A stretch of 64,000 bases of DNA, from the NCBI GenBank assembly GCA_001513145.1, contig LFSP01000037.1, positions 3,163 through 67,162 on the forward strand, given 5' to 3'. The position numbers and the translations under genes were made by a program. The notes under the pieces are model-generated. The model saw only the letters and a program-made list of their open reading frames with translations, did not search any database and had not been told where the DNA came from. Every line of letters starts with the position of its first letter. Position 1 is the first letter of the stretch. Of this stretch, positions 409-57,076 are shown piece after piece. Source of the stretch: Clostridia bacterium DTU025. GTDB lineage: Bacteria; Bacillota; DTU025.

Positions 409-1406
409 TCCCGAAGCCCAACGGCCGGCGTGCCGACGCTTCCTGGATGGCGGGGGCAAGGGCGCAGATAGACCAGTTCCTCGACTCAGTGATGCCTCCG
501 GAGGATGAGGCTCCGCCGCTGCTGCACGCGGCCATGAGGTACTCGGTGTTCTCCGGCGGCAAGAGGCTGAGGCCACTTCTGTGCATGGCGTCATATGAGG
601 CCGTGGCGCTGCGGGCCGGAGCTCGGCCGGAGAGACCCGACTTGCAGCGAACCCCGCCGTGGCTATGGCCGGCGGCCGCGGTGGAGTTGGTGCATTGCTA
701 CTCCCTGATCCATGACGACCTCCCCTGTATGGACGATGACGACTTCCGCCGGGGACGTCCTTCGTGCCACAGGGCCTTCGACGAGGCCACGGCGCTGCTC
801 GCGGGCGATGCCCTCCTGACCCTGGCCTTCGTCGCGCTGAGCGACGCCCGCTTCGTGGCGGCGATGAACGCCGCGGCTGCCGCGGCCGCCGGCTCAGCAG
901 GCCCCGGCGCCAGCCTGGCCCTGGCCTGCGTGCGGGAGCTTTCTGGCGCTGCCGGCAGCCTCGGCATGGTTGGCGGACAGGCCGCGGAGTTTGCGTCCAC
1001 AACGGGGGCGGATCCGTGGCCGAAGACTGCAGGCCCTCAGGAGGCTGCGGAGCGTATCGTTGCAATCCAGGAGCTCAAGACGGGCAAACTCTTTCAGGCG
1101 GCGGTCAGGATGGGGGCCATCGCGGCAGGCGCCGAACACGACGTTCTGCAGGCGCTCACCAGGTTCGCCCGAAGCTATGGCCGGGCGTTCCAGATCCGTG
1201 ACGACATCGAGGACGCCGACACCCAGGATGCGGCTGCCGGCACCCTCACCTCGGTCACTCTAGGCGGCGCGGAGGCTGCCAGGACCGAGATGGCTCGGCT
1301 GGCGCTTGAGGCCCGGAAGACCGCGCTTGACCTGGGCGCAGCAGGCTGCAAACTGGTGAGTATAGTCGACCTAACCTTCCCGGAAGCGGTGGACGCAGAT
1401 GTTTGA
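405..1406 (+). CDS. ispA: Polyprenyl (farnesyl/geranylgeranyl) diphosphate synthase
   Basis: First Asp-rich motif LIHDDLPCMDDDDFRRGRPSCH and second motif FQIRDDIED. ATGA overlap with the xseB stop. Confidence 0.9.
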   Translation: MIPKPNGRRADASWMAGARAQIDQFLDSVMPPEDEAPPLLHAAMRYSVFSGGKRLRPLLCMASYEAVALRAGARPERPDLQRTPPWLWPAAAVELVHCYSLIHDDLPCMDDDDFRRGRPSCHRAFDEATALLAGDALLTLAFVALSDARFVAAMNAAAAAAAGSAGPGASLALACVRELSGAAGSLGMVGGQAAEFASTTGADPWPKTAGPQEAAERIVAIQELKTGKLFQAAVRMGAIAAGAEHDVLQALTRFARSYGRAFQIRDDIEDADTQDAAAGTLTSVTLGGAEAARTEMARLALEARKTALDLGAAGCKLVSIVDLTFPEAVDADV

Positions 1407-1851
1407 TGCCAAGACTGGCCTCTTTGCCAACCGGATACTGTGGGCGTCGGCGCTGGCTTGGATCATCGCGCAGGTCCTGAAGGTTTTCACCAGCCTCTAC
1501 GCTGACAAGCGGCTGGACTGGTCCAAGCTGGTGGGGGCCGGCGGGATGCCATCCTCCCATACCGCCCTCGTGACGTCGCTCGCGGTTGGGGTGGGCATCA
1601 GGGAGGGCTGGAACTCCACCATGTTTGCCCTGGCCGTAGGGTTCGCCCTGGTGGTTATGTACGACGCCGCCGGCGTCCGCAGGGCCGCCGGCAAACAGGC
1701 GAGAGTGCTCAATCAGATCATGGAGGCCATGGCCCACAGCGGTCACATACCCACCACCAAGCTCCGCGAGCTCTTGGGGCATACCCCCACCGAAGTGGTG
1801 GCCGGGGCCATCCTGGGGGCGGCGATGGCCGCGCTCCTGGTGAAGCCGTAA
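1399..1851 (+). CDS. Divergent PAP2 / DUF212 (YuiD-like) membrane protein
   Basis: NRILWASALAWIIAQVLKVF...GGMPSSHTALVTSLAVGVG...VVMYDAAGVRRAAGKQA matches my recollection of the acid phosphatase/vanadium haloperoxidase-related DUF212 family. Overlaps the ispA stop. Confidence 0.75.
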   Translation: MFDAKTGLFANRILWASALAWIIAQVLKVFTSLYADKRLDWSKLVGAGGMPSSHTALVTSLAVGVGIREGWNSTMFALAVGFALVVMYDAAGVRRAAGKQARVLNQIMEAMAHSGHIPTTKLRELLGHTPTEVVAGAILGAAMAALLVKP

Positions 1852-1866: not shown

Positions 1867-1895
1867 TTGGACGATGCCCAGTTTTGTGGTATAAT
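1867..1895 (+). promoter_or_regulatory. Sigma-A type promoter in front of the OLE-like RNA
   Basis: TTGGAC (1867-1872), 17-nt spacer, extended -10 TGgTATAAT (TATAAT 1890-1895). Confidence 0.5.
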
Positions 1896-1899
1896 CAGG

Positions 1900-2440
1900 G
1901 TTGAGACTGATAGGCGGCGCAGTATTCTAGTTGGCGTCGGCATTCCCGAAGGCGGGGATAAACTCCCGCCAAGGGCACATCGATGAAGTCCCTTGTGCTG
2001 GCTTCCGACGCCCAGTCGGGGGCTGGTGCAGGGGGTTAAGGTTGTAGGGCGATCCGCAATGGCATGCGGGCGTGGACCCTGCTTCCGCGGAGGCCCAAGT
2101 GCGTGGTTTCGACTACGGCTTGGGGGTAACCTGCATGCGGTGCTGAACCACTCAAGTGTGGAACGGCGCTGGGTGCAGCGTAGCCTGCCTTGAGTGGACG
2201 TGTAGGATAGCGGGTACCAAGTCTAGTCTCCCCGGCCAGGGAGTAGGACCTCTTGCCGCTTGAAAACACGCCTGCAAAAGAGGCTAGGGAATGCGCCGCG
2301 CCATCGAGGAAAACTCCTAGACTGGTGCGTCGCACGGCACCGCGAGGATTACAGTGTGATCTCAGTGGCGATCCAGTTTCTCCTTCGGTGACGGGGAGAG
2401 TCTGCCGTAAAGGGAAACCGCCCGCCGGCAACGGCAGGGT
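1900..2440 (+). ncRNA. OLE (ornate, large, extremophilic) RNA candidate; boundaries approximate
   Basis: Gap of about 650 nt with only junk overlapping ORFs inside an otherwise overlapping gene string. Own promoter. Hairpins include GGCGGG/CCCGCC 1951-1970, CAAGGG/CCCTTG 1970-1995, CTCCC/GGGAG 2228-2243 and CTGCCG/CGGCAG 2402-2437. Synteny xseAB-ispA-[RNA]-oapA-dxs-tlyA-nadK-argR-recN matches the published OLE locus. Confidence 0.75.
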
Positions 2441-2503
2441 GTGCAGGCGGGAAAACCTACTGGACCTAAGTCACAATATTTACTCGTGGTGCTGCCGCCT
2501 ATC

Positions 2504-3241
2504 ATGTTGTTTCTACGTACAGACGGGATCGCGCGTCGCGCGCGCATCCCGGTCATTCCATGGGATTTCGAGGTGACGTGTTTGTCCGGCAGGAACGGAC
2601 GAGTCATCGCTGTTGGAATACTTACTTTCGTCCTGTCGGCCGCCGTGAGCTCTGCTTCAGAGGCGGTCGCTTCCTTGTTCCACGTGGGACTATCGATCCT
2701 GACGCTGATCCTGATCATCGCCACAGGCATAGTCTTCGACATAATAGGCACCGCGGCGACGGCGGCCAGCGAGGCGCCGATCAACGCCATGGCGGCCAAG
2801 CGCGTGCGGGGCTCAGCCGAGGCGCTGCACCTGGTGCGTAACGCCCCGGCGGTGGCGAACTTCTGCAACGACGTGGTGGGCGACATCTGCGGCACCGTAA
2901 GCGGCGCCGTTGGCGCCACAATAGTGCTGCTCACAGTGGGCGGCGGCACCGGGCTGCTCGCCAGGGTCATGCCCACGGTTGTGGTGGGCCTGGTGTCCGC
3001 GCTGACCGTGGCCGGCAAGGCTGCCGGCAAGCAGCTGGCCATCGAGAAGGCCAACGACGTGATCCTCACGGCAGGCCGGGTGTTGGCTTCATGGAACAGT
3101 CTGGTGGGGGGGAACACTCAAGGCAGACGGCCATCAGGTGCCAGGCCCGCCCAGAGCCACGATCACGGCCAGAGGCGGAGGGTCTCCGCCCGCCGCGGCG
3201 CCCGCGCCGAAAACGGCCGCGCCAACGATCGAACCGATTGA
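2504..3241 (+). CDS. oapA: OLE-associated membrane protein A candidate (four predicted TM helices); start uncertain
   Basis: Lies immediately 3' of the OLE-like RNA and 5' of dxs. Four hydrophobic segments, with Asp-containing motifs FDIIG and NDVVGDI in predicted helices. ATG 2504 is in frame with ORF 2441-3241. The basic C-terminal tail is atypical. Confidence 0.6.
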   Translation: MLFLRTDGIARRARIPVIPWDFEVTCLSGRNGRVIAVGILTFVLSAAVSSASEAVASLFHVGLSILTLILIIATGIVFDIIGTAATAASEAPINAMAAKRVRGSAEALHLVRNAPAVANFCNDVVGDICGTVSGAVGATIVLLTVGGGTGLLARVMPTVVVGLVSALTVAGKAAGKQLAIEKANDVILTAGRVLASWNSLVGGNTQGRRPSGARPAQSHDHGQRRRVSARRGARAENGRANDRTD

Positions 3242-3303: not shown

Positions 3304-5238
3304 ATGAAGAGCATCCTGGCATCGGTGAAGTCCCCCGCGGACCTCAAGAGCCTCTCCGCAACTGAACTCAAAGAGCTGGCGGACGAGATCCGCCAGACAA
3401 TAGTGGCCACGGTGGCCGCGAATGGGGGGCACCTTGCTCCCAACCTGGGAGTGGTGGAGCTCACCATCGCCCTTCACCTGGCCCTCGACAGCCCCCGAGA
3501 CCAGATAGTCTGGGACGTGGGGCATCAGTGCTATGCCCACAAGCTCCTCACCGGCAGGTGGGAGCGCTTCTCTACGCTTCGAACCGCCGGTGGCATCAGC
3601 GGGTTTCCCGATCCCACCGAGAGCGAACACGATGCGTTCTATACGGGGCATTCCAGCACGTCCATCTCCGCGGCCCTGGGCATGGCCGTGGCTCGCGACC
3701 GCACCGGCGGCCGCGGCACGGTGGTGGCTGTCATAGGCGACGGCGCCCTGGCAGGCGGCATGGCCTTCGAGGCGCTGAACCACGCGGGGCAGGGCGAGAC
3801 CGACTTGATCGTCGTGCTCAACGACAACGAGATGTCCATCTCCCGCAGCGTGGGAGCCCTGGCAAGCCACCTGGGCTCCATCCGGACCCGAGCCCGTCGC
3901 CGCGGCATCAGCAATGCTCTGCGGCGTATGGCGGAGGCGGTGCCGATTTTCGGGCAGCAGTTCCGCGCACTGGGCCACCGCATCAAGCGGGGCATCAAGT
4001 CGGTGCTCATCCGCGGCATGCTCTTCGAGGAGCTGGGCTTCATGTACATAGGCCCCATAGATGGGCACAACATCAGGGCCATAAAGCGCGCCATCGAAGA
4101 CGCGAAGGCTGTGGGCGGGCCCGTGCTGGTCCACGTGGTGACCACCAAGGGCAAGGGATACGCCCCCGCGGAGTCCAACCCGGAGCTCTTCCACGGTACG
4201 GCGCCGTTCGACGTCTCAACAGGCGTCCCCGCGGGCGCCGTAGCCGGCGCCACAGCCGGGGCCGCCGCCCCCGACGGTCCGCCCACGTTCACCTCCGCCT
4301 TCGGGCGGTGCATCACGGCAGCCGCCAGGCGCGATCCAAGGATAATGGCGGTGTGCGCCGCCATGGCCGACGGCACGGGCCTGGCCGGCTTCGCCCGCGC
4401 GTACCCCGAGCGCTTCTTCGACGTGGGCATCGCGGAGGAGCACGCCGTCACCTTCGCCGCCGGGATGGCGTCTCGGGGCCTACGCCCCGTGGTGGCCGTC
4501 TACTCCACGTTCCTGCAGCGAGCTTACGATCAGATAATTCATGACGTGGCGCTGGGGCGTCTACCAGTTATACTTGCCGTCGACCGCGCCGGCATCGTTG
4601 GTGAGGACGGTCGCACGCACCAGGGCGCCTTCGACATATCCTTCCTCCGCGACGCTCCCGGCATGACCGTGATGGCCCCCGCCGACGATCTCGAGCTTGA
4701 GGCCATGTTCGACTGCGCCCTCGCCCACGACGGGCCGTGCGCCATCAGGTATCCCAAGGCAGCCGTCGAACGCGTCGCCGCGCCGCGCGAGGCCGCGCCG
4801 GTGCGGATCGGCCGCGCCCAGCTTCTCCGTGAGGGCAAGCACGCCACCATCGCGGCCCTTGGGCCCATGGTGCAAAGAGCTCTCGAGGCAAGCAGGATTC
4901 TCTCGAGTCATGGCGTAAGCTGTGCAGTGATCAACGCTAGGTTCGCCAAACCTGTAGACGCCGAGCTTATCCTGGAGCACGCGTCGAAAACCGGGGTCCT
5001 CATCACAGTCGAAGACGGCATCGCAAGCGGCGGCTTCGGCTCGGCCCTCGCCCAGGCCATGCACGCTGAGGGCCTGGACGGGATAGCCCTTATCAGCCTT
5101 GGCATCCCCGACCGGTTCATAGAGCACGGCAGGCGAGATGAGATCCTCGCAAGCCTCGGTCTCGACGCCCAGGGGATAGCGGCCGCCGTGCACGCGGCGC
5201 TGAAGGAAAGGCGGGCGCGAGATGCCGGCTCGAGATAA
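3304..5238 (+). CDS. dxs: 1-deoxy-D-xylulose-5-phosphate synthase
   Basis: MKSILASVKSPADLKSLSATELKELADEIR...GHLAPNLGVVELTIALH...GHSSTSISAALGMA...IGDGALAGGMAFEALN. The upstream part of ORF 3091-5238 is Arg/Pro junk, so ATG 3304 is used. Confidence 0.95.
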   Translation: MKSILASVKSPADLKSLSATELKELADEIRQTIVATVAANGGHLAPNLGVVELTIALHLALDSPRDQIVWDVGHQCYAHKLLTGRWERFSTLRTAGGISGFPDPTESEHDAFYTGHSSTSISAALGMAVARDRTGGRGTVVAVIGDGALAGGMAFEALNHAGQGETDLIVVLNDNEMSISRSVGALASHLGSIRTRARRRGISNALRRMAEAVPIFGQQFRALGHRIKRGIKSVLIRGMLFEELGFMYIGPIDGHNIRAIKRAIEDAKAVGGPVLVHVVTTKGKGYAPAESNPELFHGTAPFDVSTGVPAGAVAGATAGAAAPDGPPTFTSAFGRCITAAARRDPRIMAVCAAMADGTGLAGFARAYPERFFDVGIAEEHAVTFAAGMASRGLRPVVAVYSTFLQRAYDQIIHDVALGRLPVILAVDRAGIVGEDGRTHQGAFDISFLRDAPGMTVMAPADDLELEAMFDCALAHDGPCAIRYPKAAVERVAAPREAAPVRIGRAQLLREGKHATIAALGPMVQRALEASRILSSHGVSCAVINARFAKPVDAELILEHASKTGVLITVEDGIASGGFGSALAQAMHAEGLDGIALISLGIPDRFIEHGRRDEILASLGLDAQGIAAAVHAALKERRARDAGSR

Positions 5239-12178: not shown

Positions 12179-12877
12179 ATGCTGGAGTACTTCCGCGCTG
12201 GTGGGCCAGTGATGTACCCGATACTGATCTGTTCAGTAGTGGGTCTGGCCATAGCTCTGCAAAAGTTCGTGCAACTGGTTTTTCTATCCTCGAACACTGA
12301 TCAGCTCATGCGCACGGTTAAGCTCCACCTGGCACACAACCATCATGCAGAAGCGCTGCACGCAGCGCAGTCGGCCCGCGGTCCCATCGCAGGTCTGGCT
12401 GTCGCTGCGTGTTTGGCGTACGGGAAGACCAAGAGCCAGGTACAAGAGGCGGTGGAGCTTGCCGGCAGAGAGCAACTTCACATCCTTGAACGCAGGATGA
12501 CCGTCCTGGACGGCATAGTGACCCTGGCACCCCTGCTCGGGCTGCTCGGCACGGTGACTGGCCTGATCAGGAGCTTCAACGTGATGAGCGCTTTCGGCGG
12601 ACTCACCACCCCGGCCCAGCTGTCCGGCGGGATAGCTGAGGCCATGATCACCACAGCTGCCGGTCTGATCGTGGCGGCTCCGCTCATGCTTGCCTACCTG
12701 TGGCTGTCAAACATGATCGATGAAAAGGTGGCCGAGATGGATGCCTGTGCCGCGGAACTGATCGAGGCAGCCGCCGCGCCAATTGCCCCTGCGGCTCCGG
12801 CGACTCCGACTGCACCGGGACCGGGTATGGGGTCGGCCGACGCGAGGGGGACAGGCAATGTTTTCCCAGTATCGTAG
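12179..12877 (+). CDS. exbB: MotA/TolQ/ExbB family proton channel protein
   Basis: GGPVMYPILICSVVGLAIAL...LAPLLGLLGTVTGLIRSF...GGIAEAMITTAAGLIVAAPLMLAY. AAGGAGG RBS. Confidence 0.85.
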   Translation: MLEYFRAGGPVMYPILICSVVGLAIALQKFVQLVFLSSNTDQLMRTVKLHLAHNHHAEALHAAQSARGPIAGLAVAACLAYGKTKSQVQEAVELAGREQLHILERRMTVLDGIVTLAPLLGLLGTVTGLIRSFNVMSAFGGLTTPAQLSGGIAEAMITTAAGLIVAAPLMLAYLWLSNMIDEKVAEMDACAAELIEAAAAPIAPAAPATPTAPGPGMGSADARGTGNVFPVS

Positions 12878-13283
12878 ACGCCACCGCACGCGGGTAGAAC
12901 TGACCCCGATGATCGACATCATGTTCTACCTGGTGATCTTCTTCATGATCTTCGGCACCTTCAGGACAGAGACCGCGGGAGTGCCGCTGGAGCTGCCACG
13001 GGCCGCCACTGCGCAGGACCTGGCCCGGGACCACCTGGTGATCACCGTGGACGGCCAAGGCAGAATCTTCTACGAGGGCCGCGTGATGACGGATTCCGAT
13101 CTCACCCGGACGCTCTTGCCCATCCTCAGGTCGACGCCTGACAGGGTTGTCATAATCAAGGCTGACCGGTCCATCAGCTACGAGAGGCTGGTTCAGACCA
13201 TCGACGCGATCAGAATGGCTGGTGGTGCAAGACTGGCGCTGGCGGTTGAGAGAGCCACCAGGGCTGGCGGTGTCACACCATGA
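12858..13283 (+). CDS. exbD: ExbD/TolR family biopolymer transport protein
   Basis: [20 protein letters not shown] with the conserved TM Asp. Periplasmic domain [26 protein letters not shown]. Overlaps the exbB end. Confidence 0.85.
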
Positions 13284-14335
13284 TGCGACGGAGGCCGACA
13301 CGGCGTCGGGCGCGGGCACAAGACGAGTGGATCAGTTGGACCATATCCATTGCAGTCCATGTGCTGATCCTCTTGCTGGTGCCCATCAGCATTGAGCCGG
13401 TGTTCGACGTATATCCCCTTGACTTCGCTGGCGTAGTGGAGATCGCGCCGCTCCAGGCTGCGCCTGCGTCACCCTCTCCTGCGCCAGGCGTGCAGATGGC
13501 GCCGCAGGAGACGAGGCCTACCACGGTGGCGCAGCAGCCCGCCCCTAAGCCTGAGCCGCAGCCTGAGCCCAAGCCTGAGCCGGTGGTGACGACGCCTCCG
13601 CAGCCTCAGCCCCAGGTGGTGGAGCTGAAACCAGAGCCGGAGCCAGAACCAGAGCCGGAGCCCGAGCCTGTGCCCGAGCCGGAACCGGAACCGGAGCCCC
13701 AGCGGGAACCTGAGCCCGAGGTGACGCCGGTGGAGCCGGTGGAGGAGGCGGTATCCGAGGACACGTTGCTCACGAGCCCGCAGGGGGAGATCCCCATCGA
13801 GACCCAGCCGGAGCCTGAGGTTGAGCCGGAGCCTGAGCGGATCCCGGCGGAGCCCGACGCGCCTGTGGCCGAGCCGACGGAGCCGGGGCCCGACCTGATG
13901 GCCATGGCCGAGCAGGTTGAGGTGACGGAGGTGTCGGAGGTGGGCGTGGGCTCGCCTGACGGCACCGGAACGCTTCCGAGGCCGGAGTTTCCCGGCACCG
14001 ACCCGACGGGCTGGAGCATGATAAGGACCACCGGAGGTAGCGACCACGGAGTGTGGATCCCCAAATCCGTGCAGAACGTGCGGGGCAGGGGGGAAGCCGT
14101 GGTGCGCGTGGAGGTAAGCGCAGACGGAGTGCTCAAGGACGCGCACCTGGTGCAGGAGCCTCCCGATTCCCCCATGACCTCAGCCATCCTCAACGCGGTC
14201 CGGTCGTCGTGGGCGTTCAACCCTGACATCACGGAGGGCCGTAAGGACTCATACTTCATCGAGTTCGTCGTGGGCTACGACGGCGGAACCGGCGAAGTGT
14301 GGGTGGAAAGCAGACGCACCTATTACGAGCAATAG
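13280..14335 (+). CDS. TonB-like energy transducer
   Basis: N-terminal TM with an SxxxH motif (SIAVH), long Pro-Glu/Pro-Lys spacer, and a C-terminal TonB_C-like region [49 protein letters not shown] overlap with exbD. Confidence 0.7.
13545..13720 (+). repeat. Imperfect tandem hexanucleotide (GAGCCN / CCNGAG) repeats encoding the (PE)n/(PK)n spacer of the TonB-like protein
   Basis: ccagagccggagccagaaccagagccggagcccgagcctgtgcccgagccggaaccggaaccggagccc read directly. Confidence 0.7.
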
Positions 14336-16418: not shown

Positions 16419-18821
16419 GTGATATCTGTGTCTAAGAGGATGAGCGCAGTTCTGGCCGTCTTCCTGGCCTTCGTGATCTCCGCCCCTGCCGTAGTGGCGC
16501 AGTCCGCCGTGGTGGACGTGCCACGCGACCACTGGGCGTACGATGCGGTCAACCTCATGATCAGCAAAGGGTACATGGAAGTATACGAATCAGGCAGGTT
16601 CTCCGGGGACGATCCGGTGAGCCGTTACCTCTTGGCCTTCGTGGTGGCGCGGCTCCTGCAGGACGTGGAGGCGGGCCGCACCGCCCTGAGCGAGGACGAC
16701 ATGCGCGTGCTGCGCGAGATCTCCACGACCCTCCGCGAACAGCTGGCGGTGGTCATCAGCCGCCTGTCAGAGCTGGAACGCATGGCGGCCGATGCGTCGG
16801 CTGAGGCGATCGCCGCCAAGGACAGCGCCGCCAGGGGCGCGCTGGACACGGCTGCGAAGTACGCGGAGCTGAAGGCGGCCATCGAAAGCCAGCGGGCCGA
16901 GCTTGACGCGCAGATCAAGGTGAACGCCGAGGCTGCCGACCAGAAGCTCTCGGTTCTCTTCGGCGACTTGAGGAACCAGCACGCGGACCTTAAGGATTCG
17001 CTGGGCCAGAGCATCGCCGCGCAGCAGGAGAAGCTCGCGGCGGTGGAGGCGTCGGCCCAGTCGGCGCTGGCGGCGGAGCGTTCCGCCCGGGCGGAGCTGG
17101 AGCAGAACCTGACGCTCTCGCTGAGCTCGCTCAAGAACGAACTGTCCGCGAGGATCGATTCGGTCTCCAGGGACCAGTCCACGCTGGGCTCCACGCTGAC
17201 ATCGCAGATCGCCGCGGTTAAGGCCGACCTGGATGCGGCGAAGGTGAAGCACGGCGAGGAGCTGGGCAGTCTCCAGGTGAGAATAGACGAAGTGACGTCG
17301 GCCGTCGTGGCGAACCGCGCCTGGGCGGAAGCCGCGATACAGGACGCGGTAACCAAGGAGGCTGCGGCCAGGGCCGCGCAGGACGAGAGCCTCGACAGGC
17401 GCCTGGCGAACATTGAAGCCGGGTTGGTTAGTGCAGCGCAGGCCACGGAATCGGAGGCCGCGGCGCGCACCGTGGGGCTTGAGGCTCTGAACCAGCGGGT
17501 GTCGGCGCTGGCTGTGGACCTGAGCACCACCAAGGGGCAGACGGCAAGTCAGATGGAGCAGCTGCGGCTGGCGCTGGATGCCGAATCGGCTGAGCGGGTG
17601 GAGTCGTACGCGGCACTGCTGGAAAGGCAGGACAAGATGCAGCAGGAGCTCGACGCCAAGGTTGCAGTGGCCATGGCCGAGGCTATGGCGGCGGCCCAGG
17701 CTGCCATGGGCGCGGTGGAGCTGGAGAAGGCGGCGCGCACGGCCGACGTGGATGATCTGGGGAAGAAGATCGACGCCGTGGCGCAGCAGCAGGCCGATGC
17801 CGAACAGCGGCTACAGGCCCAGGGCCGCGCGCTGAATGACGCCAAGGCGGAGCTCTCGGCGGCGTTGGCGGAGCTTGCGGCCAGGCAGGACCAGTCGCTG
17901 CAGGCTGCGACTTCGTCGGCGGCTCTGTCGGCGGCGGCGCTGAAGGAAGCGATAGAGAAGGGCCTTGCCGACGAGAAGGCTGCCCGCGAGGCGGCGATCG
18001 CGCAGGAGGCTGCACTGAGGCAGCAGCAGATCGAGGCCGAGGCGGCGGCCAGGCAGAAGCAGGCCGGCGAGATACTGGCTCAGCTCGCGGCGACGGCGGG
18101 CAGCGTGGCGGATCTGGATCGCAAGACCGCGGACGCCGATGCGGCGATCCTGGCTGCGATGGAGCTTGAGAAGGAGAGGCTGACGAAGACCAAGGAAGAG
18201 CTCGCGCAGCTTACGGACGTAGTCAACGAGCTGGATGCGCTGCTGGCTCAGACGCAGGCACAGCTGGACGCGCTGTCAAACAAGCATACCACCGATTACA
18301 ACCAGCAGAGGCAGGCCCTGGTTGATATGAGGGTCGCCATGGACCAGCTGTCCAAGCAGTTCGACGAGAAGCTGACGGCCAACGCAGCTCAGGACGCCAG
18401 GACGGCGGCCATGGCCCTCCAGAACTCCATCAACATTGAGGAGCTGGTGGAGGCGCTCAACGAGACCAGGGACGTCCTGAACCAGACCATGGCCGCCCTG
18501 GACAGCACGGACAAGGACGTGGAGGGTCTGGAGGAGAAGTACCGCGGCCTTGAGGAGAGGCTCGCTAGCATGGAGAAGATCCTGGAAGGCAGCCTTGACG
18601 AGCTGGCTGCGAGGTTCTCGGACGAGCTCATCGCCGAGCGCTGGGAGGCTGAGGCCCGCGAGATCAAGCTGCAGCAGAGGATAGAGGACCTCGAGAGGCG
18701 CGTGGAGCAGCTGGAGGCCGGAAGGGCGTCCACCGGTTCGCCGGGAACGCTGTGGGCGCTGCTGGGAGTGGCCGCGGCGGTGGCAGGCGTTGCTCTGCTG
18801 GCGGGAGCAGGTGCTCCGTGA
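16419..18821 (+). CDS. SLH-domain protein with a very long coiled coil and a C-terminal TM anchor
   Basis: Signal peptide, then SLH motif VPRDHWAYDAVNLMISKGYMEVYESGRFSGDDPVSRYLLAFVVARLL. About 650 aa of Ala/Glu/Gln/Leu-rich heptad-like sequence. Ends with LWALLGVAAAVAGVALLAGAGAP. Confidence 0.75.
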   Translation: MISVSKRMSAVLAVFLAFVISAPAVVAQSAVVDVPRDHWAYDAVNLMISKGYMEVYESGRFSGDDPVSRYLLAFVVARLLQDVEAGRTALSEDDMRVLREISTTLREQLAVVISRLSELERMAADASAEAIAAKDSAARGALDTAAKYAELKAAIESQRAELDAQIKVNAEAADQKLSVLFGDLRNQHADLKDSLGQSIAAQQEKLAAVEASAQSALAAERSARAELEQNLTLSLSSLKNELSARIDSVSRDQSTLGSTLTSQIAAVKADLDAAKVKHGEELGSLQVRIDEVTSAVVANRAWAEAAIQDAVTKEAAARAAQDESLDRRLANIEAGLVSAAQATESEAAARTVGLEALNQRVSALAVDLSTTKGQTASQMEQLRLALDAESAERVESYAALLERQDKMQQELDAKVAVAMAEAMAAAQAAMGAVELEKAARTADVDDLGKKIDAVAQQQADAEQRLQAQGRALNDAKAELSAALAELAARQDQSLQAATSSAALSAAALKEAIEKGLADEKAAREAAIAQEAALRQQQIEAEAAARQKQAGEILAQLAATAGSVADLDRKTADADAAILAAMELEKERLTKTKEELAQLTDVVNELDALLAQTQAQLDALSNKHTTDYNQQRQALVDMRVAMDQLSKQFDEKLTANAAQDARTAAMALQNSINIEELVEALNETRDVLNQTMAALDSTDKDVEGLEEKYRGLEERLASMEKILEGSLDELAARFSDELIAERWEAEAREIKLQQRIEDLERRVEQLEAGRASTGSPGTLWALLGVAAAVAGVALLAGAGAP

Positions 18822-22234: not shown

Positions 22235-22418
22235 ACTGCACCTGCAGCATGCGTCCACGCATTCGCAGACGAGGGCAGGCCTCCCCGCAGACTTACAGCG
22301 GGCTGGCCTGTCTCGCGCCGTACGTACCGTAATGCTATAATGTCGATGTACGCTCGGGATAAGCGAGCCTCTTGGACAGAATAACCAGTGCCATCGATAC
22401 ACGGTTGGAGGACGTTTG

Positions 22419-35608: not shown

Positions 35609-36736
35609 CTACTGGCCGGGGAAATGGCACCGTACCAGGTGGATGCCGATGGAGGCGCCGGTTGAGGCGGCGGCGGGAGCGACGCCTGTGGCTGGTTTCA
35701 GCTCCGGCTCTTGCTCGAGGCATACCCGCTGCCTCCTGGGACACCTTGGATAGTAACGGCACCCGGCGGGCGTCGCGGCCGCGGTCGGCTCGTCGGAGTC
35801 AGGGTCAGCGCTGCCCAGGGACTGGCCGGGGCCCCCGGGGCCGGCTCCGACGCGTGCCAGCGACCAGCGCCTGCTGGACTGGGGCGAGATGGAGAGTTTC
35901 GACCGGCGACGCCGTCCAGGGACGGCAGCCAGCAGGCTGAGGGTGTATGGGTGACCCGGGGAGCCGTACACCTGGTCGGTTGGCGCGAGCTCCACGATCT
36001 GCCCTGCGTACATCACCGCAACCCTGTTGCACATGTGATAGACCACGCCCAGATCGTGGGCGATCAGCAGGTAGGCAAGGCCCAGCTCCGCCTGGAGGTC
36101 CTGAAGCAAGGCGATGATCTGCGCCTGCACCGAGACGTCAAGCGAAGAGAGGGGCTCGTCGGCCACTATGTAGTCAGGATGCATGGCCAGGGCGCGGGCG
36201 ATGCCGACGCGCTGACGCTGGCCTCCGCTGAGCTGGTGCGGATATCTGTCGAGATGCTGCCGGGACAGACCCACCCTCTCTATGAGCTCCACCGCCTCCT
36301 GCCTGCGCCGTTGACGGGGCACTCCGCGGGCTGACAGAGCCACGCCGATGGTGTGGGCCACCGTGTAGCGGGGGTTGAGGGAGCTGTACGGGTTCTGGAA
36401 CACGATCTGCGCCCTCTGCCTCAGAGCCCGGTGTGACAGGCGCCCTCCAGGGCCCCATATGGGCTCGCCGTCGAACAGCACCTGTCCGGCGGTGGGGGGC
36501 AGGAGGCCCACCGTGGTGCGGCCGAAAGTGCTCTTTCCGCAGCCGGATTCGCCCACCAGCCCTACGGTTTCACCTGGGTATACGTCGAGGCTGAGGCCGT
36601 CCACAGCGCGGATCGTCACGCTGGTGGCTCCAGCGAGCCTCTGGGCAAGGAATGACTCGGCTATCTTGAAGTGTACTTTCACATCAACGGCGCTGACCAG
36701 CGGCGCAGTCGGATTCGTATCGTTCATTCGAGTCAC
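35609..36736 (-). CDS. Oligopeptide/dipeptide ABC transporter ATP-binding protein (OppF/DppF type) with an insertion in the C-terminal domain
   Basis: Walker A GESGCGKST, signature LSGGQRQRV, Walker B IVADEP, C-terminal PGHPYT...CRYYPRCP. Carries an unusual low-complexity insert of roughly 50 aa. Confidence 0.9.
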   Translation of the reverse strand: MTRMNDTNPTAPLVSAVDVKVHFKIAESFLAQRLAGATSVTIRAVDGLSLDVYPGETVGLVGESGCGKSTFGRTTVGLLPPTAGQVLFDGEPIWGPGGRLSHRALRQRAQIVFQNPYSSLNPRYTVAHTIGVALSARGVPRQRRRQEAVELIERVGLSRQHLDRYPHQLSGGQRQRVGIARALAMHPDYIVADEPLSSLDVSVQAQIIALLQDLQAELGLAYLLIAHDLGVVYHMCNRVAVMYAGQIVELAPTDQVYGSPGHPYTLSLLAAVPGRRRRSKLSISPQSSRRWSLARVGAGPGGPGQSLGSADPDSDEPTAAATPAGCRYYPRCPRRQRVCLEQEPELKPATGVAPAAASTGASIGIHLVRCHFPGQ

Positions 36737-36828
36737 CTCTCCATGGCATTATAACATGTCACGGATATGCCATGTTCGGGCGTGGTGCCCTGTAGGTGGC
36801 CGTTATGGAAGCTAGTGGATTTTAGCTG

Positions 36829-36858: not shown

Positions 36859-36908
36859 TAGAACAGTCGAATACGCGCGTTTGAAGATGCACTCTTCTGT
36901 TGTGCATC

Positions 36909-37024
36909 CGCTGAATCTCCCCGCCAGGGGGGAACGGGGGACCCACTTTTTCGGGGCGAATCTCTGCGTCAAGCAGGTAGGGCTCTATCCTTCAGCCCGA
37001 GCCCGGCAGCTAACCTCGTAAGCG
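36909..37024 (+). promoter_or_regulatory. ydaO/yuaA-type cyclic-di-AMP riboswitch aptamer
   Basis: CGCTGAATC...ACGGGGGACCCA...GGGGCGAATC...GGTAGGG...CCCGAGCCCGGCAGCTAACCTCGTAAGCG matches the pseudo-twofold ydaO consensus elements I recall (ACGGGGGACCCA; CCCGA.CCCG.CAGCUAACCUCGUAAGCG). A 7-bp hairpin lies at 36886-36908. Confidence 0.8.
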
Positions 37025-37045
37025 AAAGGAAGGGACGCCCATCAC

Positions 37046-37075: not shown

Positions 37076-37154
37076 CAAGAAGCCTTCCTTTCCTTTCCTT
37101 TTCACGCCGAGCGTATAGCGTATCTTGAATTCCTATATGATGGAGGGCATTACC

Positions 37155-38708
37155 ATGAGGACTAGGCACTTCTTGGTACTGGCCACGATTGTGGCGTTGG
37201 CGCTTGGCACAACTGCAGGCGTTCCAACGCTGGCGGCTACGAAGCTTTCTGTCATCATCGACACCGAAGCCAACAGGGCCGACGAGGCCCAGGCTATCGC
37301 AGGTTACCTTCAACAGGTAGGCATCCAGGCAGACGTGAGGATCTGGGAGTGGAACGCTCTGAAGGAGAAGCTGCTCGCCGGCGAGCGGCAGCTGTACCTC
37401 ACCGACTGGGGCAGCGCCTACTTCGATCCCTTCGATATAGTGGTGCCCAAGCTCCGCACCGGGGACAGGGGCAACTACTCCTTCTATTCCAACCCGGAGT
37501 TCGACGCCGCGCTCGACAGGGCGCTGGCAGCCAGGACAGATGAGGAGCGCGCCAGAGCCTACCGGGAGGCCCAGGCCATCGTGATGCAGGACCTGCCGTG
37601 GGCCTTTGGGTACACTCTGCTGACGATTGAGGCGGCCAGGTCTGAAGTGCAGAACTGGCAGCCGGCCATGGACGGCAGACTGAACATGCACGATGTGTCA
37701 CTGTCCAGGGGCGATACCATCATCATAGGTATGGGCACTGACAGGATCGTCACGCTTGACCCCGCCGCCTATAGGGATCGCCACACGGAGACCATTATCC
37801 GCAACATCTTCGACGGCCTGGTGACCAGGACTTGGGACGGCAATGTGGTTCCGGAGATTGCCGAATCGTGGGAGCGGGTGTCAGATACCGAGTGGGTGTT
37901 CAGGCTGAGGAAGGGCATAAAGTTCCACGACGGGTCGACGCTCACCGCCGACGATGTGGTGTTCAGCATCAACAGAGTGGTGCTGGAGGGCGGCATGGGC
38001 GATGGCATGACGTCGCCTCGCAAAGGCCTGCTTGGCACCGTGCAGCGGGCCGAGAAGATTGACGACAGCACCGTTAGGGTTGTGCTCTCGGAGCCGTTCC
38101 CTGTGCTGCTTCAGGCGATGGTGCACGTGCAGATCGTCCCCATGGCGTACGTGCAGAGCGTCGGAGACGACGGCTTCGCCAGGCAGCCAGTGGGGTGCGG
38201 CCCGTTCCGCTTCGTCGAAGGGCGCCTGGACGACAGGGTCGTGATGGAGCGGTTCGATGACTACTGGGGTGGCGCCCCCGACATACCGCCCGTGGGGCCC
38301 GCCAAGGTCAGGCGCGTGATATTCCGCATGATGCCTGATCCCACCGTGAGGGTGGCTGCGCTGATGTCTGGCGAAGTCCACATCATCCAGAGCGTACCAC
38401 CACACATGGTTGCGGCTTTGGAGGCCGATTCGCGGATTCAGGTGAAGACCGTCGAGGGGACCACTGCCTACAACCTGGAGATGAACGTCGCCAAGCCGCC
38501 GTTCGATGACATACGGGTGAGGCAGGCCATCAACTACGCCATAGACTGGGACGCCATAATCGCCACCATATACGAGAACAACGCAAGCCGTCTCGCCTCG
38601 CCATTCCTGCCCAGCGGGTTCGGATATGATCCGACGGTGAGGCCATGGCCGTATGATCCGGCGAAGGCCAGAGCCCTGCTGGAGGAGGCGGGCTTCTCCA
38701 CCAGATGA
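37155..38708 (+). CDS. ABC transporter substrate-binding protein, family 5 (peptide/nickel), apparently circularly permuted; no lipobox
   Basis: Signal peptide MRTRHFLVLATIVALALGTTAGVPTLAA without Cys. Family-5 C-terminal-type sequence comes first (IAGYLQQVGIQADVRIWEWNALKEKLL...YSNPEFDAALDRA...AYREAQAIVMQDLPW). The N-terminal-type sequence follows (IIIGMGTDRIVTLDPA...IFDGLV...VPEIAESWE...WVFRLRKGIKFHDGSTLTADDVVFS). Ends at YDPAKARALLEEAGF. Confidence 0.85.
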   Translation: MRTRHFLVLATIVALALGTTAGVPTLAATKLSVIIDTEANRADEAQAIAGYLQQVGIQADVRIWEWNALKEKLLAGERQLYLTDWGSAYFDPFDIVVPKLRTGDRGNYSFYSNPEFDAALDRALAARTDEERARAYREAQAIVMQDLPWAFGYTLLTIEAARSEVQNWQPAMDGRLNMHDVSLSRGDTIIIGMGTDRIVTLDPAAYRDRHTETIIRNIFDGLVTRTWDGNVVPEIAESWERVSDTEWVFRLRKGIKFHDGSTLTADDVVFSINRVVLEGGMGDGMTSPRKGLLGTVQRAEKIDDSTVRVVLSEPFPVLLQAMVHVQIVPMAYVQSVGDDGFARQPVGCGPFRFVEGRLDDRVVMERFDDYWGGAPDIPPVGPAKVRRVIFRMMPDPTVRVAALMSGEVHIIQSVPPHMVAALEADSRIQVKTVEGTTAYNLEMNVAKPPFDDIRVRQAINYAIDWDAIIATIYENNASRLASPFLPSGFGYDPTVRPWPYDPAKARALLEEAGFSTR

Positions 38709-39730
38709 TACGCCTTACGAAGCTGCAGGTCAGGGTGGTGGAGCGGATCATCGCCACCATCCCCCTGGCCCTGGCAGTGGCGGTCGCGGCGTTCGTCTTC
38801 ATGAGGATGCTGCCTGGTGACCCGGTGGACATCATGATGGGCGAGGCAGCCGGCGTAGCTCAGGGCGAGATCGAGGCGCTCCGTCGCCAGCTGGGCCTGG
38901 ACCAGCCCATCCTGGTGCAGCTGAGCAACTACCTTAAGGGGGTCTTCCGCGGGGATCTTGGCTACTCCATCATCAGGGGCAGACCGGTGGCGGAGGTGAT
39001 AGGCGAGGCGATCCCCGCCACGGTGGAACTGGCGGTGTGCGCCATGGTCATCTCCGTGCTCGTAGGGGTGCCGCTGGGCACGGCCTCAGCGCTGAAGCAG
39101 AACACCGCCCTTGACAGGGCCACCAGCGCCGCGTCGTTCCTGGGCATCTCCATGCCTCCGTTCTGGCTAGGCATAGTTGCCATACTGGTGCTGGCGATGA
39201 ACCTGGGGTGGCTTCCCACATCGGGGAGGGCGCCATACGGATACGAGCCTAGACATATAACTGGCCTGTTCATCCTGGATTCGATACTCACCTGGGATCC
39301 GGAAGCGCTGGCGGCTTCCCTGAGGCACCTGGTGCTTCCTTCGCTGACACTGGCCACCGGGGTTACCGCGGTGGTGGTCAGGATCACCAGGTCAAGCATG
39401 CTTGATGTGATGCGCGCCGATTACATCACGTTCGCCAGGGCAAAAGGAGTGCCCGAAAGGGCGGTAACGGTGAAGCACGCTCTGAGAAACGCCATGATAC
39501 CCACTGCGACCCTGGTGGGCCTCGAGTTCGGATCGCTATTGGGCGGAAACATGATCGTGGAGACGATATTCAGCTGGCCGGGGCTGGGCAGGGTGGTGGT
39601 GGACGCCATCTTCGCCCAAGACTACCCTGTGGTTCAGGCAGCGGTGATGGTATACGCCCTGACGTACGTGGGCATGAACCTCATCACCGATATCGTGTAT
39701 ACGGTGCTGAACCCTAGGATGAGCATCTAG
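38705..39730 (+). CDS. ABC transporter permease (DppB/OppB type)
   Basis: N-terminal RMLPGDPV motif, six hydrophobic segments, EAA-like ITFARAKGVPERAV. Confidence 0.9.
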   Translation: MIRLTKLQVRVVERIIATIPLALAVAVAAFVFMRMLPGDPVDIMMGEAAGVAQGEIEALRRQLGLDQPILVQLSNYLKGVFRGDLGYSIIRGRPVAEVIGEAIPATVELAVCAMVISVLVGVPLGTASALKQNTALDRATSAASFLGISMPPFWLGIVAILVLAMNLGWLPTSGRAPYGYEPRHITGLFILDSILTWDPEALAASLRHLVLPSLTLATGVTAVVVRITRSSMLDVMRADYITFARAKGVPERAVTVKHALRNAMIPTATLVGLEFGSLLGGNMIVETIFSWPGLGRVVVDAIFAQDYPVVQAAVMVYALTYVGMNLITDIVYTVLNPRMSI

Positions 39731-39773: not shown

Positions 39774-40703
39774 ATGAGCCATGCAACAGTTCAAACTGAA
39801 GAGCTGACCTACTGTCCGCATGTGGCAGACTCCCATCCGTCCTATGAACCGGTGGTCTTGTTGCCCAGCGCCTGGCAGCGGCTGTGGGCCCATAGCGGGG
39901 CCCGAGTCGGACTGGTGTTGCTGGCTCTGTATATGGTGTGCGCGGCCTTGGCGCCGGTGTTGTCGCCACACGATCCCACAGCGGTGAACCTCATGTCGAG
40001 GCTGGCCGCGCCTTCCCTTTCCGGCCCGTACATCCTCGGCGCAGACCAGCTAGGCAGGGACATCCTCTCCAGGGTACTCTATGGCGCTGGGGTGTCCATC
40101 CTGGTTGGGCTGGCCACGATTGCCGTGTCGGCAGGAGTGGGGATCACCCTCGGTATGATCGCGGGCTACGTCGGGGGCAAGTTCGACGCCCTGGTATCCA
40201 GGTTCACTGAGCTGCTCCTGGCTTTCCCTTACATGATCTTCGTCATAGGTGCGATGGCCGTCATGGGCCCGGGCTTCTGGAACCTGATCTGGGCTCTGAG
40301 CTTCAAGGGCTGGGTCGAGTTCTTCAGGTTAGCCAGGGCGCTGACCATGGCCGAGAAGTCAAAGGAGTACGTTGAAGCAGCGCGGGCCCTGGGCCGTCCC
40401 ACGCCGGTGATCATCGCGGCTGAGATCCTTCCCAACATCCTCAGCTCGCTGATGGTGCTGGCCACCATGAGGATGGGCAAGATGATCGTGATGGAGTCCT
40501 CCCTGAGCTTCCTGGGCCTGGGCATACCGCCGAGCATACCCGCATGGGGCTCAATGATCAATGACGGAAGGCGCTTCCTACTGACCTCATGGTGGGTGGC
40601 CACCATCCCCGGCATCGCCTTGGCAGGGCTGGTGCTGGCCATGAACCTGGTGGGGGAGGGTATGCGCGACGTGCTCGATCCGAAGCTGGTGAGCGGGTCA
40701 TGA
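39774..40703 (+). CDS. ABC transporter permease (DppC/OppC type)
   Basis: ILGADQLGRDILSRVLYGA, and YVEAARALG in the EAA loop. Confidence 0.9.
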   Translation: MSHATVQTEELTYCPHVADSHPSYEPVVLLPSAWQRLWAHSGARVGLVLLALYMVCAALAPVLSPHDPTAVNLMSRLAAPSLSGPYILGADQLGRDILSRVLYGAGVSILVGLATIAVSAGVGITLGMIAGYVGGKFDALVSRFTELLLAFPYMIFVIGAMAVMGPGFWNLIWALSFKGWVEFFRLARALTMAEKSKEYVEAARALGRPTPVIIAAEILPNILSSLMVLATMRMGKMIVMESSLSFLGLGIPPSIPAWGSMINDGRRFLLTSWWVATIPGIALAGLVLAMNLVGEGMRDVLDPKLVSGS

Positions 40704-41746
40704 CGATGAGGCAGGCAGACGCCACTCCCATCCTGGATGTGAGGAACCTCACCACCCACTATCCTTCGCCTGTGGGCCCCGTGAAGGCGGTGAACGATGT
40801 CAGCCTATCCCTGCGCGAGGGAGAGATCCTTGGTATAGTGGGGGAGTCCGGATGCGGAAAGAGCGCGCTGCTGCTCTCCGTGATGAGGCTGGTGCCCTTC
40901 CCGGGCAGGATAGTCGGCGGATCGGCGTTCCTGGAAGGGCAGGACCTCATGGCACTGGACGAGGCCGCCATGCGGAACGTCAGGGGCCGGAAGATAGCCA
41001 TGGTGTTCCAGGACCCGATGACCAGTCTCAACCCCGCACACCGCGTAGGGCAGCAGATCGTGGAGGCCATGGCCGTTCACGGAATAGGGGAGAGCGGTGC
41101 ATCGGGCGGGGAAGGCGCCGGTAACAACGGGGCATCGGCCTCGCGATGGCGACGCCAGAGGGCCATCGAGCTCATGGCGCAGGTGGGTATACCGCACCCC
41201 GAGACCCGCTTCAACCAATACCCGCACGAGTTCAGCGGCGGCCAGCAGCAGAGGATCATGATCGCCGTGGCGTTGGCCTGCGGCCCCAGGGTGCTCCTGG
41301 CTGATGAGCCCACCACCAGTCTGGATGTGACCATCCAGGCGCAGGTGCTTGAGCTCATGAGGAAGATCAACGAGGAGACAGGGACGGCCATCATGATGGT
41401 GACCCATGACCTGCCCCTTGCCGGTGACTTCTGCCACAACATCGCCGTGATGTACGCCGGAAGGATCGTGGAGTACGGGTCGGCGGATGCCGTGATGGAA
41501 TCACCTGCGCACCCGTATACCAGGGCTTTGCTAGCATCGATGCCCGAATTCGGGCGTCGAGAGAGGCTGGTTCCTGTGCCCGGGGAGGTGCCTGATCTCA
41601 GCCGTCTTCCGTCGGGCTGCGCGTTCTGGCCCAGGTGTGCCCTGCGAGTGGACGTGTGCATGGAAACCCGACCGGAGCTCGGTGAGGTGGAGCCCGGCCA
41701 TCTGGCGGCGTGCCATCTGGTGGCGTCGTGCACGGCCTGCGCGTGA
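40700..41746 (+). CDS. Oligopeptide/dipeptide ABC transporter ATP-binding protein (OppD/DppD type)
   Basis: Walker A GESGCGKS, signature FSGGQQQRI, Walker B LLADEPTT, C-terminal PAHPYT...CAFWPRC. ATG 40700 overlaps the permease stop. Confidence 0.9.
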   Translation: MTMRQADATPILDVRNLTTHYPSPVGPVKAVNDVSLSLREGEILGIVGESGCGKSALLLSVMRLVPFPGRIVGGSAFLEGQDLMALDEAAMRNVRGRKIAMVFQDPMTSLNPAHRVGQQIVEAMAVHGIGESGASGGEGAGNNGASASRWRRQRAIELMAQVGIPHPETRFNQYPHEFSGGQQQRIMIAVALACGPRVLLADEPTTSLDVTIQAQVLELMRKINEETGTAIMMVTHDLPLAGDFCHNIAVMYAGRIVEYGSADAVMESPAHPYTRALLASMPEFGRRERLVPVPGEVPDLSRLPSGCAFWPRCALRVDVCMETRPELGEVEPGHLAACHLVASCTACA

Positions 41747-41835: not shown

Positions 41836-41913
41836 CGGGGCGTGGCGCAGGTTGGCTAGCGCGCTTGCTTGGGGTGCAAGAGGTCGGGAGTTCAAGTCTC
41901 CCCGCTCCGACCA
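41836..41913 (+). tRNA. tRNA-Pro (anticodon GGG), CCA encoded
   Basis: Hand-folded. Acceptor CGGGGCG/CGCTCCG, D arm GCGC..GCGC, anticodon stem CTTGC/GCAAG with loop TTGGGGT, T arm GGGAG-TTCAAGT-CTCCC, then A-CCA. Confidence 0.9.
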
Positions 41914-44864: not shown

Positions 44865-44951
44865 TGGTGCGAGAGGAGGGATTTGAACCCTCACGGGGGT
44901 TGCCCCGTCAGATCCTAAGTCTGATGCGTCTGCCGTTCCGCCACTCTCGCA
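44865..44951 (-). tRNA. tRNA-Leu (anticodon TAG), long variable arm, CCA encoded
   Basis: The reverse complement folds as GCGAGAG...anticodon stem TCAGA/TCTGA with loop CTTAGGA...variable arm CGGGGCAACCCCCG...T arm...CTCTCGC-A-CCA. Confidence 0.9.
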
Positions 44952-44960
44952 AACATAAGA

Positions 44961-45037
44961 TGGTCGAGGTGCCGGGACTTGAACCCGGGGCCTCTTGGTC
45001 CCGAACCAAGCGCGCTACCAAACTGCGCTACACCTCG
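44961..45037 (-). tRNA. tRNA-Pro (anticodon CGG), CCA encoded
   Basis: Reverse complement has acceptor CGAGGTG/CACCTCG, anticodon stem CTTGG/CCAAG with loop TTCGGGA, T arm CCGGG-TTCAAGT-CCCGG. Confidence 0.9.
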
Positions 45038-52612: not shown

Positions 52613-52688
52613 AGGGGAGTAGCTCAACTGGTAGAGCATCGGTCTCCAAAACCGAGGGCTGCGGGTTCGAGTCCTGTCTCCCCTGCCA
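52613..52688 (+). tRNA. tRNA-Trp (anticodon CCA), CCA encoded
   Basis: Acceptor AGGGGAG/CTCCCCT, anticodon stem CGGTC with loop TCCAAAA, T arm GCGGG-TTCGAGT-CCTGT. Confidence 0.9.
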
Positions 52689-57044: not shown

Positions 57045-57076
57045 TTGCGTTCTCACTCCAGTGGCTACCGTCGAAT

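Follow-up and report, generated by a model that had tools for sequence, protein, structure and literature searches.

A full-length OLE RNA gene upstream of oapA in a G+C-rich, deep-branching Bacillota lineage from anaerobic digesters

Introduction

OLE (ornate, large, extremophilic) RNA, a large noncoding RNA of Bacillota that is bound to the membrane, was discovered in 2006, has a curated family in Rfam and is still under intensive study. Here we analysed a 64-kb stretch of DNA from Clostridia bacterium DTU025 (contig LFSP01000037.1), referred to as the window and used for all coordinates below, in which an initial annotation had noticed a long gap between two genes and proposed that it holds ole, the gene for OLE RNA, followed by oapA, the gene for its membrane partner. 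The class is large, with 2,822 matches across Bacillota catalogued in GTDB R214 (PMC11332333). Its mechanism is taken here from Halalkalibacterium halodurans genetics and Clostridium cryo-electron microscopy (cryo-EM) structures, which together describe an RNA dimer that binds OapA, OapB, OapC and bS21 and protects cells against stress (PMC3413148, PMC9723947, PMC12054373, PMC10898510, PMC12265935, PMC12286853). Besides the full-length type of about 600 nt, two variants have been described that share its conserved core nucleotides and in which helices P7 and P8 are strongly shortened or absent, often without the OapB site (PMC11332333).

In B. halodurans, OLE RNA is highly transcribed from its own proximal promoter, and its 5′ ends were mapped to where P1 begins (Wallace et al. 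2012, PMC3413148). The gene neighbourhood described for OLE comprises isoprenoid synthesis, DNA repair, NAD kinase and ArgR (PMC12265935). Several contacts of the RNA have been assigned to defined elements. Binding of OapB requires a GNRA tetraloop on P13 together with a single-nucleotide bulge in the stem (PMC7936274), and a P14.1-type GNRA hairpin serves as a secondary OapB site in B. halodurans. The OapC kink-turn (k-turn) of B. halodurans is made up of nt 83–96 and 136–147 and contains the conserved pair C85–G144 (PMC9723947), while a symmetric kissing-loop dimer contact at P9.3 has been reported as GGCC, GAUC or AGCU (PMC12286853). On the protein side, a DxxxD motif distinguishes OapA from CNNM domains (PMC11332333), and a conserved cluster of basic residues in OapA has been proposed to contact the RNA.

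Results

A full-length match to OLE RNA between DUF212 and oapA

The gap begins after the DUF212 gene (1399–1851, plus strand; Pfam PF02681, E=8.7e-52). When the gap was compared with the Rfam covariance model RF01071 using Rfam cmscan, the model matched at 1898–2514 on the plus strand (617 nt) over its entire length (positions 1–616 of 616, untruncated), scoring 466.4 bits where the gathering threshold is 50 (E=1e-133). Projection of the Rfam structure onto this copy showed canonical base pairs at 140 of the 155 model pairs with both partners present, and 228 of the 249 highly conserved (upper-case) consensus positions were identical (91.6%). Four mismatches to the conserved consensus proved to be compensated pairs in the terminal helix. 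Furthermore, the minimum free energy (MFE) of 1902–2510 was −295.7 kcal/mol compared with −250.4 ± 7.1 for shuffled sequences (z=−6.4), and this independent fold recovered the terminal helix and the main arms of OLE. The G+C content of ole was 60%, compared with ~66% across the host window.

Pfam analysis of the window gave the gene order xseA′-xseB-ispA-DUF212, the gap, and then the membrane protein gene followed by dxs-tlyA-nadK-argR-recN. Neighbouring genes overlap by 4 nt (xseB/ispA), 8 nt (ispA/DUF212) and 17 nt (dxs/tlyA). Collectively, these data indicated that the gap is almost certainly a functional, full-length ole gene encoding OLE RNA, with oapA directly after it, and that the mature RNA probably extends from ~1902 to ~2503–2510. 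The initial annotation had placed an OLE RNA candidate inside an isoprenoid/DNA-repair operon, and the full-length RF01071 match, oapA and the gene context bear this out. It had also described overlapping flanking genes, a gene order typical of OLE and a gap of about 650 nt, from 1851 to 2504, without a believable open reading frame (ORF). The overlaps and the order, which matches the clustering in PMC12265935, were as described, and so was the noncoding gap, whose three named ORFs exist and are not conserved in relatives (see below); its length is more likely ~730 nt, with the oapA start at TTG 2582.

The host is an uncultured, deep-branching, G+C-rich Bacillota lineage from anaerobic digesters. 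The window encodes SpoIVA, whose best homologs were in Firmicutes/Clostridia metagenome-assembled genomes (MAGs) at 70–73% identity, followed by mixed classes at ~57%, and the close OapA homologs all came from Bacillota MAGs. The exact DUF212 protein was present on contigs of many metagenomes, anaerobic-digester assemblies included, with a constant layout. Both the phylum and the anaerobic habitat are those expected of an OLE host.

OLE helices covary across related loci

Relatives were collected by scanning one genome per GTDB species (r232) with the protein encoded downstream of the gap. This yielded 14 related loci at 38–64% OapA identity, 64% being the maximum among the GTDB r232 species representatives. 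All are from uncultured Bacillota, with MAGs of Symbiobacterium, Limnochordia and Syntrophomonadaceae among them. An OLE match of 408–494 bits was found directly upstream of the OapA homolog in 14 of 14 loci, most of which keep the order xseB-ispA-DUF212-OLE-oapA-dxs-tlyA-nadK-argR.

The window copy and its relatives were aligned with MAFFT (15 sequences), and the Rfam structure was projected onto the alignment with the terminal helix added. The results revealed that 86.6% of the pair cells were paired, compared with 42–46% when the partners were slid by 1–3 columns, and that 98 of 165 pairs had changed on both sides. None of 500 shuffles reached the observed pairing values, a count that is not a probability, as the sequences are related and stand in a MAFFT alignment. 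Thus the ornate set of ~25 helices typical of OLE was supported by covariation in the 15 sequences, and the compensatory changes by which the initial annotation had proposed to judge the RNA were found in helices shared with OLE.

Two further observations were made among the relatives. In 8 of the 14 related loci, as in the window, ispA and ole are separated by the gene for the membrane protein DUF212 (divergent PAP2 phosphatase-like), whose identity there is 62–69%, above that of ispA at 36–51%. In one locus, L016 from a Limnochordia MAG, OLE (3395–3975 of that locus) was without the distal P9 including the GGCC kissing loop and still scored 408 bits; its shortened P9 (alignment columns ~423–474) resembled the style of variant 1, yet the locus lies outside the TANB77 clade.

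Anatomy of the RNA and its predicted binding sites

Helix names follow Breaker-laboratory texts, with the mapping of names to coordinates inferred in this analysis; all elements are on the plus strand. The RNA is closed by a terminal helix in which the 5′ strand (1909–1918, GAUAGGCGGC, P1 region) pairs with the 3′ strand (2494–2503, GCCGCCUAUC). This helix is absent from the Rfam structure line annotation. We found that it consists of 10 perfect pairs in the window, that 94.7% of its cells were paired across the 15 sequences and that 9 of 10 pairs changed on both sides; in the window, C replaces U at 1915 and 1918 while G replaces A at the partner positions 2497 and 2494, which keeps both pairs. 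Just inside it, a putative P3/P3.1 5′ strand (1920–1930; CAGU, bulge AUU, CUAG) may pair with CUAG-ACUG at 2317–2324, which would enclose domain 1, the name P3 being assigned from PMC12265935. The bases involved are all invariant in the alignment, so covariation neither supports nor refutes this pairing.

The first hairpin (1951–1970, GGCGGG-GAUAAACU-CCCGCC) is an Rfam helix with an A-rich loop, 92.2% of whose cells were paired and in which UAAA is invariant or nearly so in relatives. It probably corresponds to P4/L4, which forms a dimer contact in the structures solved by cryo-EM. It is followed by the conserved block CAUCGAUGAAG (1978–1988), which is invariant in relatives and within which the 8-nt palindrome CAUCGAUG is a candidate OapA site near P4a. 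The same block would form the 5′ half of the OapC k-turn, with U1980/C1981 in the C-helix, G1982–U1984 (GAU) as the bulge and G1985/A1986 in sheared pairs. The 3′ half is UUAAGG (2036–2041), and the pairs C1981–G2040, U1980–G2041, G1985–A2039 and A1986–A2038 are all allowed. Both halves are identical to the Rfam consensus, and C1981–G2040 and its neighbours may be mapped to the k-turn around C85–G144 of B. halodurans.

The following arms are Rfam helices. P5/P5.1 (1989–2035) is a hairpin of 5+15 bp with the conserved loop GCCCA, 98.0% of its cells being paired and 7 pairs changing on both sides, and the UUAAGG junction together with P6/P6.1 and its conserved loop AAUGGCA occupies 2036–2086. 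The P7 arm (2094–2124) is 13 nt shorter than the Rfam consensus, with deletions at model positions ~213–228; its helix was 84.4% paired and had 10 pairs in which both partners changed. The P8 arm (2131–2178; 89.1% paired) carries an 18-nt loop insertion at ~2146–2163. The P9 arm (P9 to P9.3, 2187–2284) folds on its own, and the P9.3 tip loop CGGCCA holds the palindrome GGCC at 2234–2237, one of the reported kissing-loop sequences. The 3′ domain (P11–P15 region, 2336–2493) is closed by an 11-bp helix (2336–2346/2483–2493) that was 98.2% paired and in which all but one of the 11 pairs had changed in both partners. Within it, the P13 hairpin (2379–2399) has a GUGA tetraloop at 2388–2391 and a single bulged U at 2384 and is the predicted OapB site, and a P14.1-like hairpin (2420–2440; 88.9% paired, 5 pairs changing on both sides) has the GNRA loop GCAA at 2428–2431.

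Because P7, P8, a long P9 and the P13 OapB site are all present, the window copy is of the full-length type and is neither variant 1 nor variant 2. Judged from its sequence, it has all the elements needed for the published OLE interactions. Four GC-rich hairpins had been listed in the initial annotation, and two of them, 1951–1970 and 2228–2243, are consensus helices. The other two, 1970–1995 and 2402–2437, were rejected as fortuitous, since their proposed partners conflict with covarying helices; the pairs supported by covariation in these regions are 1989–1993/2031–2035, 2400–2407/2441–2448 and 2420–2427/2432–2440 (2436 unpaired).

The downstream gene encodes OapA

The gene oapA (2582–3241, plus strand) encodes 219 aa with four long helices, a DxxxD motif and an Arg-rich tail. 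Its start is most likely the TTG at 2582 and not the ATG at 2504, because the N-termini of homologs align there and a ribosome-binding site (GAGGTG, 2570–2575) precedes it. The public gene call P0001 (245 aa), whose ATG at 2504 immediately follows the last base of the terminal helix, overlaps the 3′ end of the Rfam match by 11 nt and is probably ~26 codons too long.

No significant Pfam or NCBIfam family was found for the protein, and a PDB sequence search returned nothing relevant. What identifies it as OapA is thus the DxxxD motif together with the number of helices, the invariant linkage to OLE and a weak CNNM resemblance. We found 525 homologs at E≤0.001, most of them ~200 aa long and some with a precomputed match to CNNM (PF01595). 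The motif reads N96-D97-V-V-G-D101, and D97 and D101 were invariant in 42 sequences. In an AlphaFold2 model (mean predicted local distance difference test score 76.4) the helices span residues 4–32, 35–64, 88–120 and 125–155, and hydropathy analysis placed hydrophobic segments near residues 14–21, 34–54, 107–121 and 132–139. When this model was compared with known structures using Foldseek, the five best PDB fold matches were MtCorB (7M1T/7M1U) and the CorC transmembrane (TM) domain (7CFG), with weak scores (E 0.19–0.69, probability 0.51–0.97, TM-score ≤0.42). The same distant CorB/CNNM resemblance has been reported for H. halodurans OapA (PMC11332333). OapA differs from MpfA, CorB and CorC, to which its likeness in the CNNM fold is weak, by four TM helices instead of three, by DxxxD and by having no CBS or CorC domains. 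These data agree with the earlier suggestion that the four-TM protein after the gap is OapA, as judged by the motif, the four helices and the linkage to OLE.

With respect to basic residues, K146 and K150 are invariant and R86 is nearly so, and a loop at 73–77 reads KRVRG. The tail (residues 171–219, 3092–3241) comprises 49 residues, is Arg-rich with 11 K/R and is of low confidence in the model. Its sequence is not conserved, but similarly basic tails, differing in length, are seen repeatedly among the homologs; the tail could contribute to RNA binding.

A conserved proximal promoter and the ends of OLE RNA

To the 5′ side of ole, a promoter scan confirmed the near-consensus promoter given in the initial annotation, a sigma-70-type site at 1867–1895 (plus strand) with the −35 element TTGGAC at 1867–1872, a 17-nt spacer and the extended −10 element TGgTATAAT at 1887–1895. 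Its last base lies 14 nt upstream of the terminal helix, and transcription is predicted to start at ~1902. The sequence TGNTATAAT occurs 3 times in the window against 0.17 expected. The other perfect TGnTATAAT copies are at 22333–22341 (plus strand) and 36748–36756 (minus strand), the latter just upstream of a minus-strand ABC ATPase gene (35609–36736).

Among the 13 relatives with upstream sequence, 8 (L006–L012 and L014) show, as far from OLE as in the window, a −35-like hexamer of TTGA type followed after 17–18 nt by TATAAT; the sequence around these elements is not conserved. The full TGnTATAAT is present in 6 of the 8 (not in L006 and L010), each time with no second copy across the 5–9 kb analysed at that locus, and also in L019. 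The conserved position supports the dedicated promoter that had been proposed for this copy, but such a promoter is not new (PMC3413148).

At the 3′ side, a terminator scan called no plus-strand intrinsic terminator between OLE and oapA or dxs. A GC-rich hairpin at ~2522–2552 (GGGAUCGCGCG...CGCGCGCAUCCC) lies between the 3′ end of OLE and the oapA ribosome-binding site; it was discarded as a terminator, as no U-tract follows, it was not called and the regional fold had z=−0.8 against shuffles. Because there is no intrinsic terminator between them, co-transcription of OLE with oapA is likely, as in B. halodurans, and the 3′ end of OLE is presumably set by processing near 2503–2510.

These features could also be read as a 5′ leader, with OLE acting mainly in cis on the oapA-dxs mRNA and not as a separate stable RNA. 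In favour of a leader are the lack of a plus-strand intrinsic terminator before oapA, the fact that the only strong promoter-like site before oapA lies upstream of OLE, and the reading of the B. halodurans cluster also as a polycistronic transcript (PMC12265935). However, in B. halodurans OLE accumulates as one highly abundant and very stable species of ~600 nt, which still acts together with OapA if it is produced from a distal site (PMC3413148), and in the window the terminal helix closes the unit ~80 nt before the oapA start. Moreover, co-transcription and a stable processed RNA are compatible with each other. We therefore regard a mainly cis-acting leader as very unlikely.

An intact gene and not a relic or coding sequence

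Some points weigh against a functional ole gene with its oapA partner. In the distal P9 stem, 7 model pairs are non-canonical, although a shifted register still folds, and the A-rich loop at 1957–1964 has AAAC where the consensus has AAAAA. The likeness of OapA to CNNM is below significance (Foldseek E 0.19–0.7; Pfam CNNM E=0.96). No KOW/OapB-like protein and no L7Ae-family (OapC) protein was found in the ~55 ORFs of the window, which is uninformative because oapB (ybzG) and oapC (ybxF) are usually unlinked to ole.

If the two deviations in P9 and the A-rich loop are taken together with the 13 nt missing from P7 and the 18 nt added to the P8 loop, the locus might be seen as a decaying OLE relic, that is, a pseudogene. 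The P7/P8 architecture is, however, common to relatives at only 56–64% OapA identity and is therefore a long-standing trait of the lineage, not a sign of recent decay. The score of the window copy is in the middle of the range of the relatives, more than nine-tenths of the conserved positions are intact, oapA is intact with its invariant motif residues, and identical copies occur in many independent metagenomes. Decay thus has hardly any probability.

Finally, the gap does contain three ORFs of 66–131 aa, at 1993–2193 (plus strand), 2036–2431 (minus strand) and 2253–2576 (plus strand), and GC-rich DNA easily gives stop-free runs, which reach 97–208 aa in every OLE homolog. In the 13 divergent relatives, the corresponding regions have length differences that are not multiples of 3 and 1–6 in-frame stops; 1993–2193 and 2253–2576 are broken in all 13, and the minus-strand ORF is a partial exception, being stop-free in L006, where its length is frame-shifted, and in L011. 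That the gap encodes small proteins and matches the RNA model incidentally can be dismissed with near certainty, since the ORFs are broken in this way while the substitutions occur as compensatory helix pairs and the match to the covariance model is far beyond chance (E=1e-133).

Other features of the window

The window also holds genes for an ExbB-ExbD-TonB-like trio, namely ExbB (12179–12877), ExbD (12858–13283; PF02472, E=1.4e-27) and a TonB_C-like protein whose linker is a long run of Glu-Pro repeats (13280–14335), and for an SLH-domain protein of 800 aa (16419–18821). In a spore-forming Bacillota that carries both spoIVA and ole, the presence of a TonB system hints that the cell may have an outer membrane or the remains of one.

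A c-di-AMP (ydaO-type) riboswitch (36899–37038, plus strand, 85.8 bits) lies directly upstream of an oligopeptide-type ABC operon (SBP_bac_5 37125–38708, permease 38705–39730, ATPase 40589–41746). Another isoprenoid-pathway gene in the window is an ispH-rpsA-type fusion, in which the C-terminal part of IspH/LytB is joined to four S1 domains (62443–63996, minus strand; the ORF reaches the window edge region). An MgtC-family protein fused to an ACT domain (56352–57113, minus strand) adjoins surE; it is mentioned solely in view of the link between OLE/OapA and tolerance of Mg2+. Four tRNA genes were detected at 41836–41910 (plus), 44868–44950 (minus), 44964–45037 (minus) and 52613–52685 (plus), with Rfam scores of 57–69 bits.

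Discussion

The ole gene described here is another member of a catalogued class, an ordinary though clear example. Compared with the full-length OLE type, of which H. halodurans is the model organism (Puerta-Fernandez 2006; Wallace 2012; Fernando & Breaker 2024), it has the same length of ~600 nt, the same conserved blocks and the same helices. As in that type, oapA lies directly downstream, the neighbourhood is one of isoprenoid, DNA-repair, NAD and arginine genes, and a proximal promoter stands just upstream of the terminal helix. The P13 GUGA loop with its bulged U, the k-turn residues and the P9.3 GGCC are likewise shared. Unlike the full-length consensus, the window copy has a shorter P7 (by 13 nt), a longer P8 loop (by 18 nt), a shifted register in distal P9 and AAAC instead of AAAAA in the A-rich loop, and its terminal helix reads GGCGGC/GCCGCC where the OLE consensus is GGUGG(U/C)/(A/G)CCACC. 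Its setting also differs from that of the model OLE hosts, with an ole gene of 60% G+C in an uncultured, deep-branching Bacillota from anaerobic digesters. With OLE variants 1 and 2 it has the conserved core nucleotides in common, and P7 is shortened as in variant 1; in contrast to those variants, it possesses P7, P8 and the OapB site.

By analogy with the systems that have been studied, its own promoter would drive transcription of the ~600-nt OLE RNA, with a probable further contribution of read-through from xseB-ispA. The RNA would be stable and abundant and would dimerise. A dimer of OapA, a CNNM-like putative divalent-cation transporter, may hold it at the membrane, where OLE may recruit OapB, OapC and bS21. 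The resulting ribonucleoprotein (RNP) would be expected to aid tolerance of short-chain alcohols, cold, excess Mg2+ and poor carbon sources.

The ExbB-ExbD-TonB-like trio and the SLH-domain protein raise the question of whether the Bacillota lineage in which OLE and OapA operate here has an outer membrane, or lost one only recently. We consider this doubtful, with the odds clearly on the other side. OLE is absent from the diderm Negativicutes, an observation that has been read as hinting at a link between the RNP and Gram-positive wall biology (Fernando & Breaker 2024, PMC11332333), and domain 2 of OLE has been proposed to reach the cell wall (Lyon & Breaker 2025). If the lineage did prove to be diderm, it would be a natural test case for both of these cell-wall ideas.

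The main question about OLE, its biochemical role, is not touched by this copy, and thousands of members have been catalogued. For the organism, a 730-nt stretch that seemed empty is now annotated as ole, and a corrected start is proposed for oapA. For the family, the locus adds a high-G+C, deep-branching lineage to the OLE data, together with compensatory changes in the terminal helix and in 2336–2346/2483–2493, and indicates that a proximal ole promoter with an extended −10 element is conserved well beyond B. halodurans.

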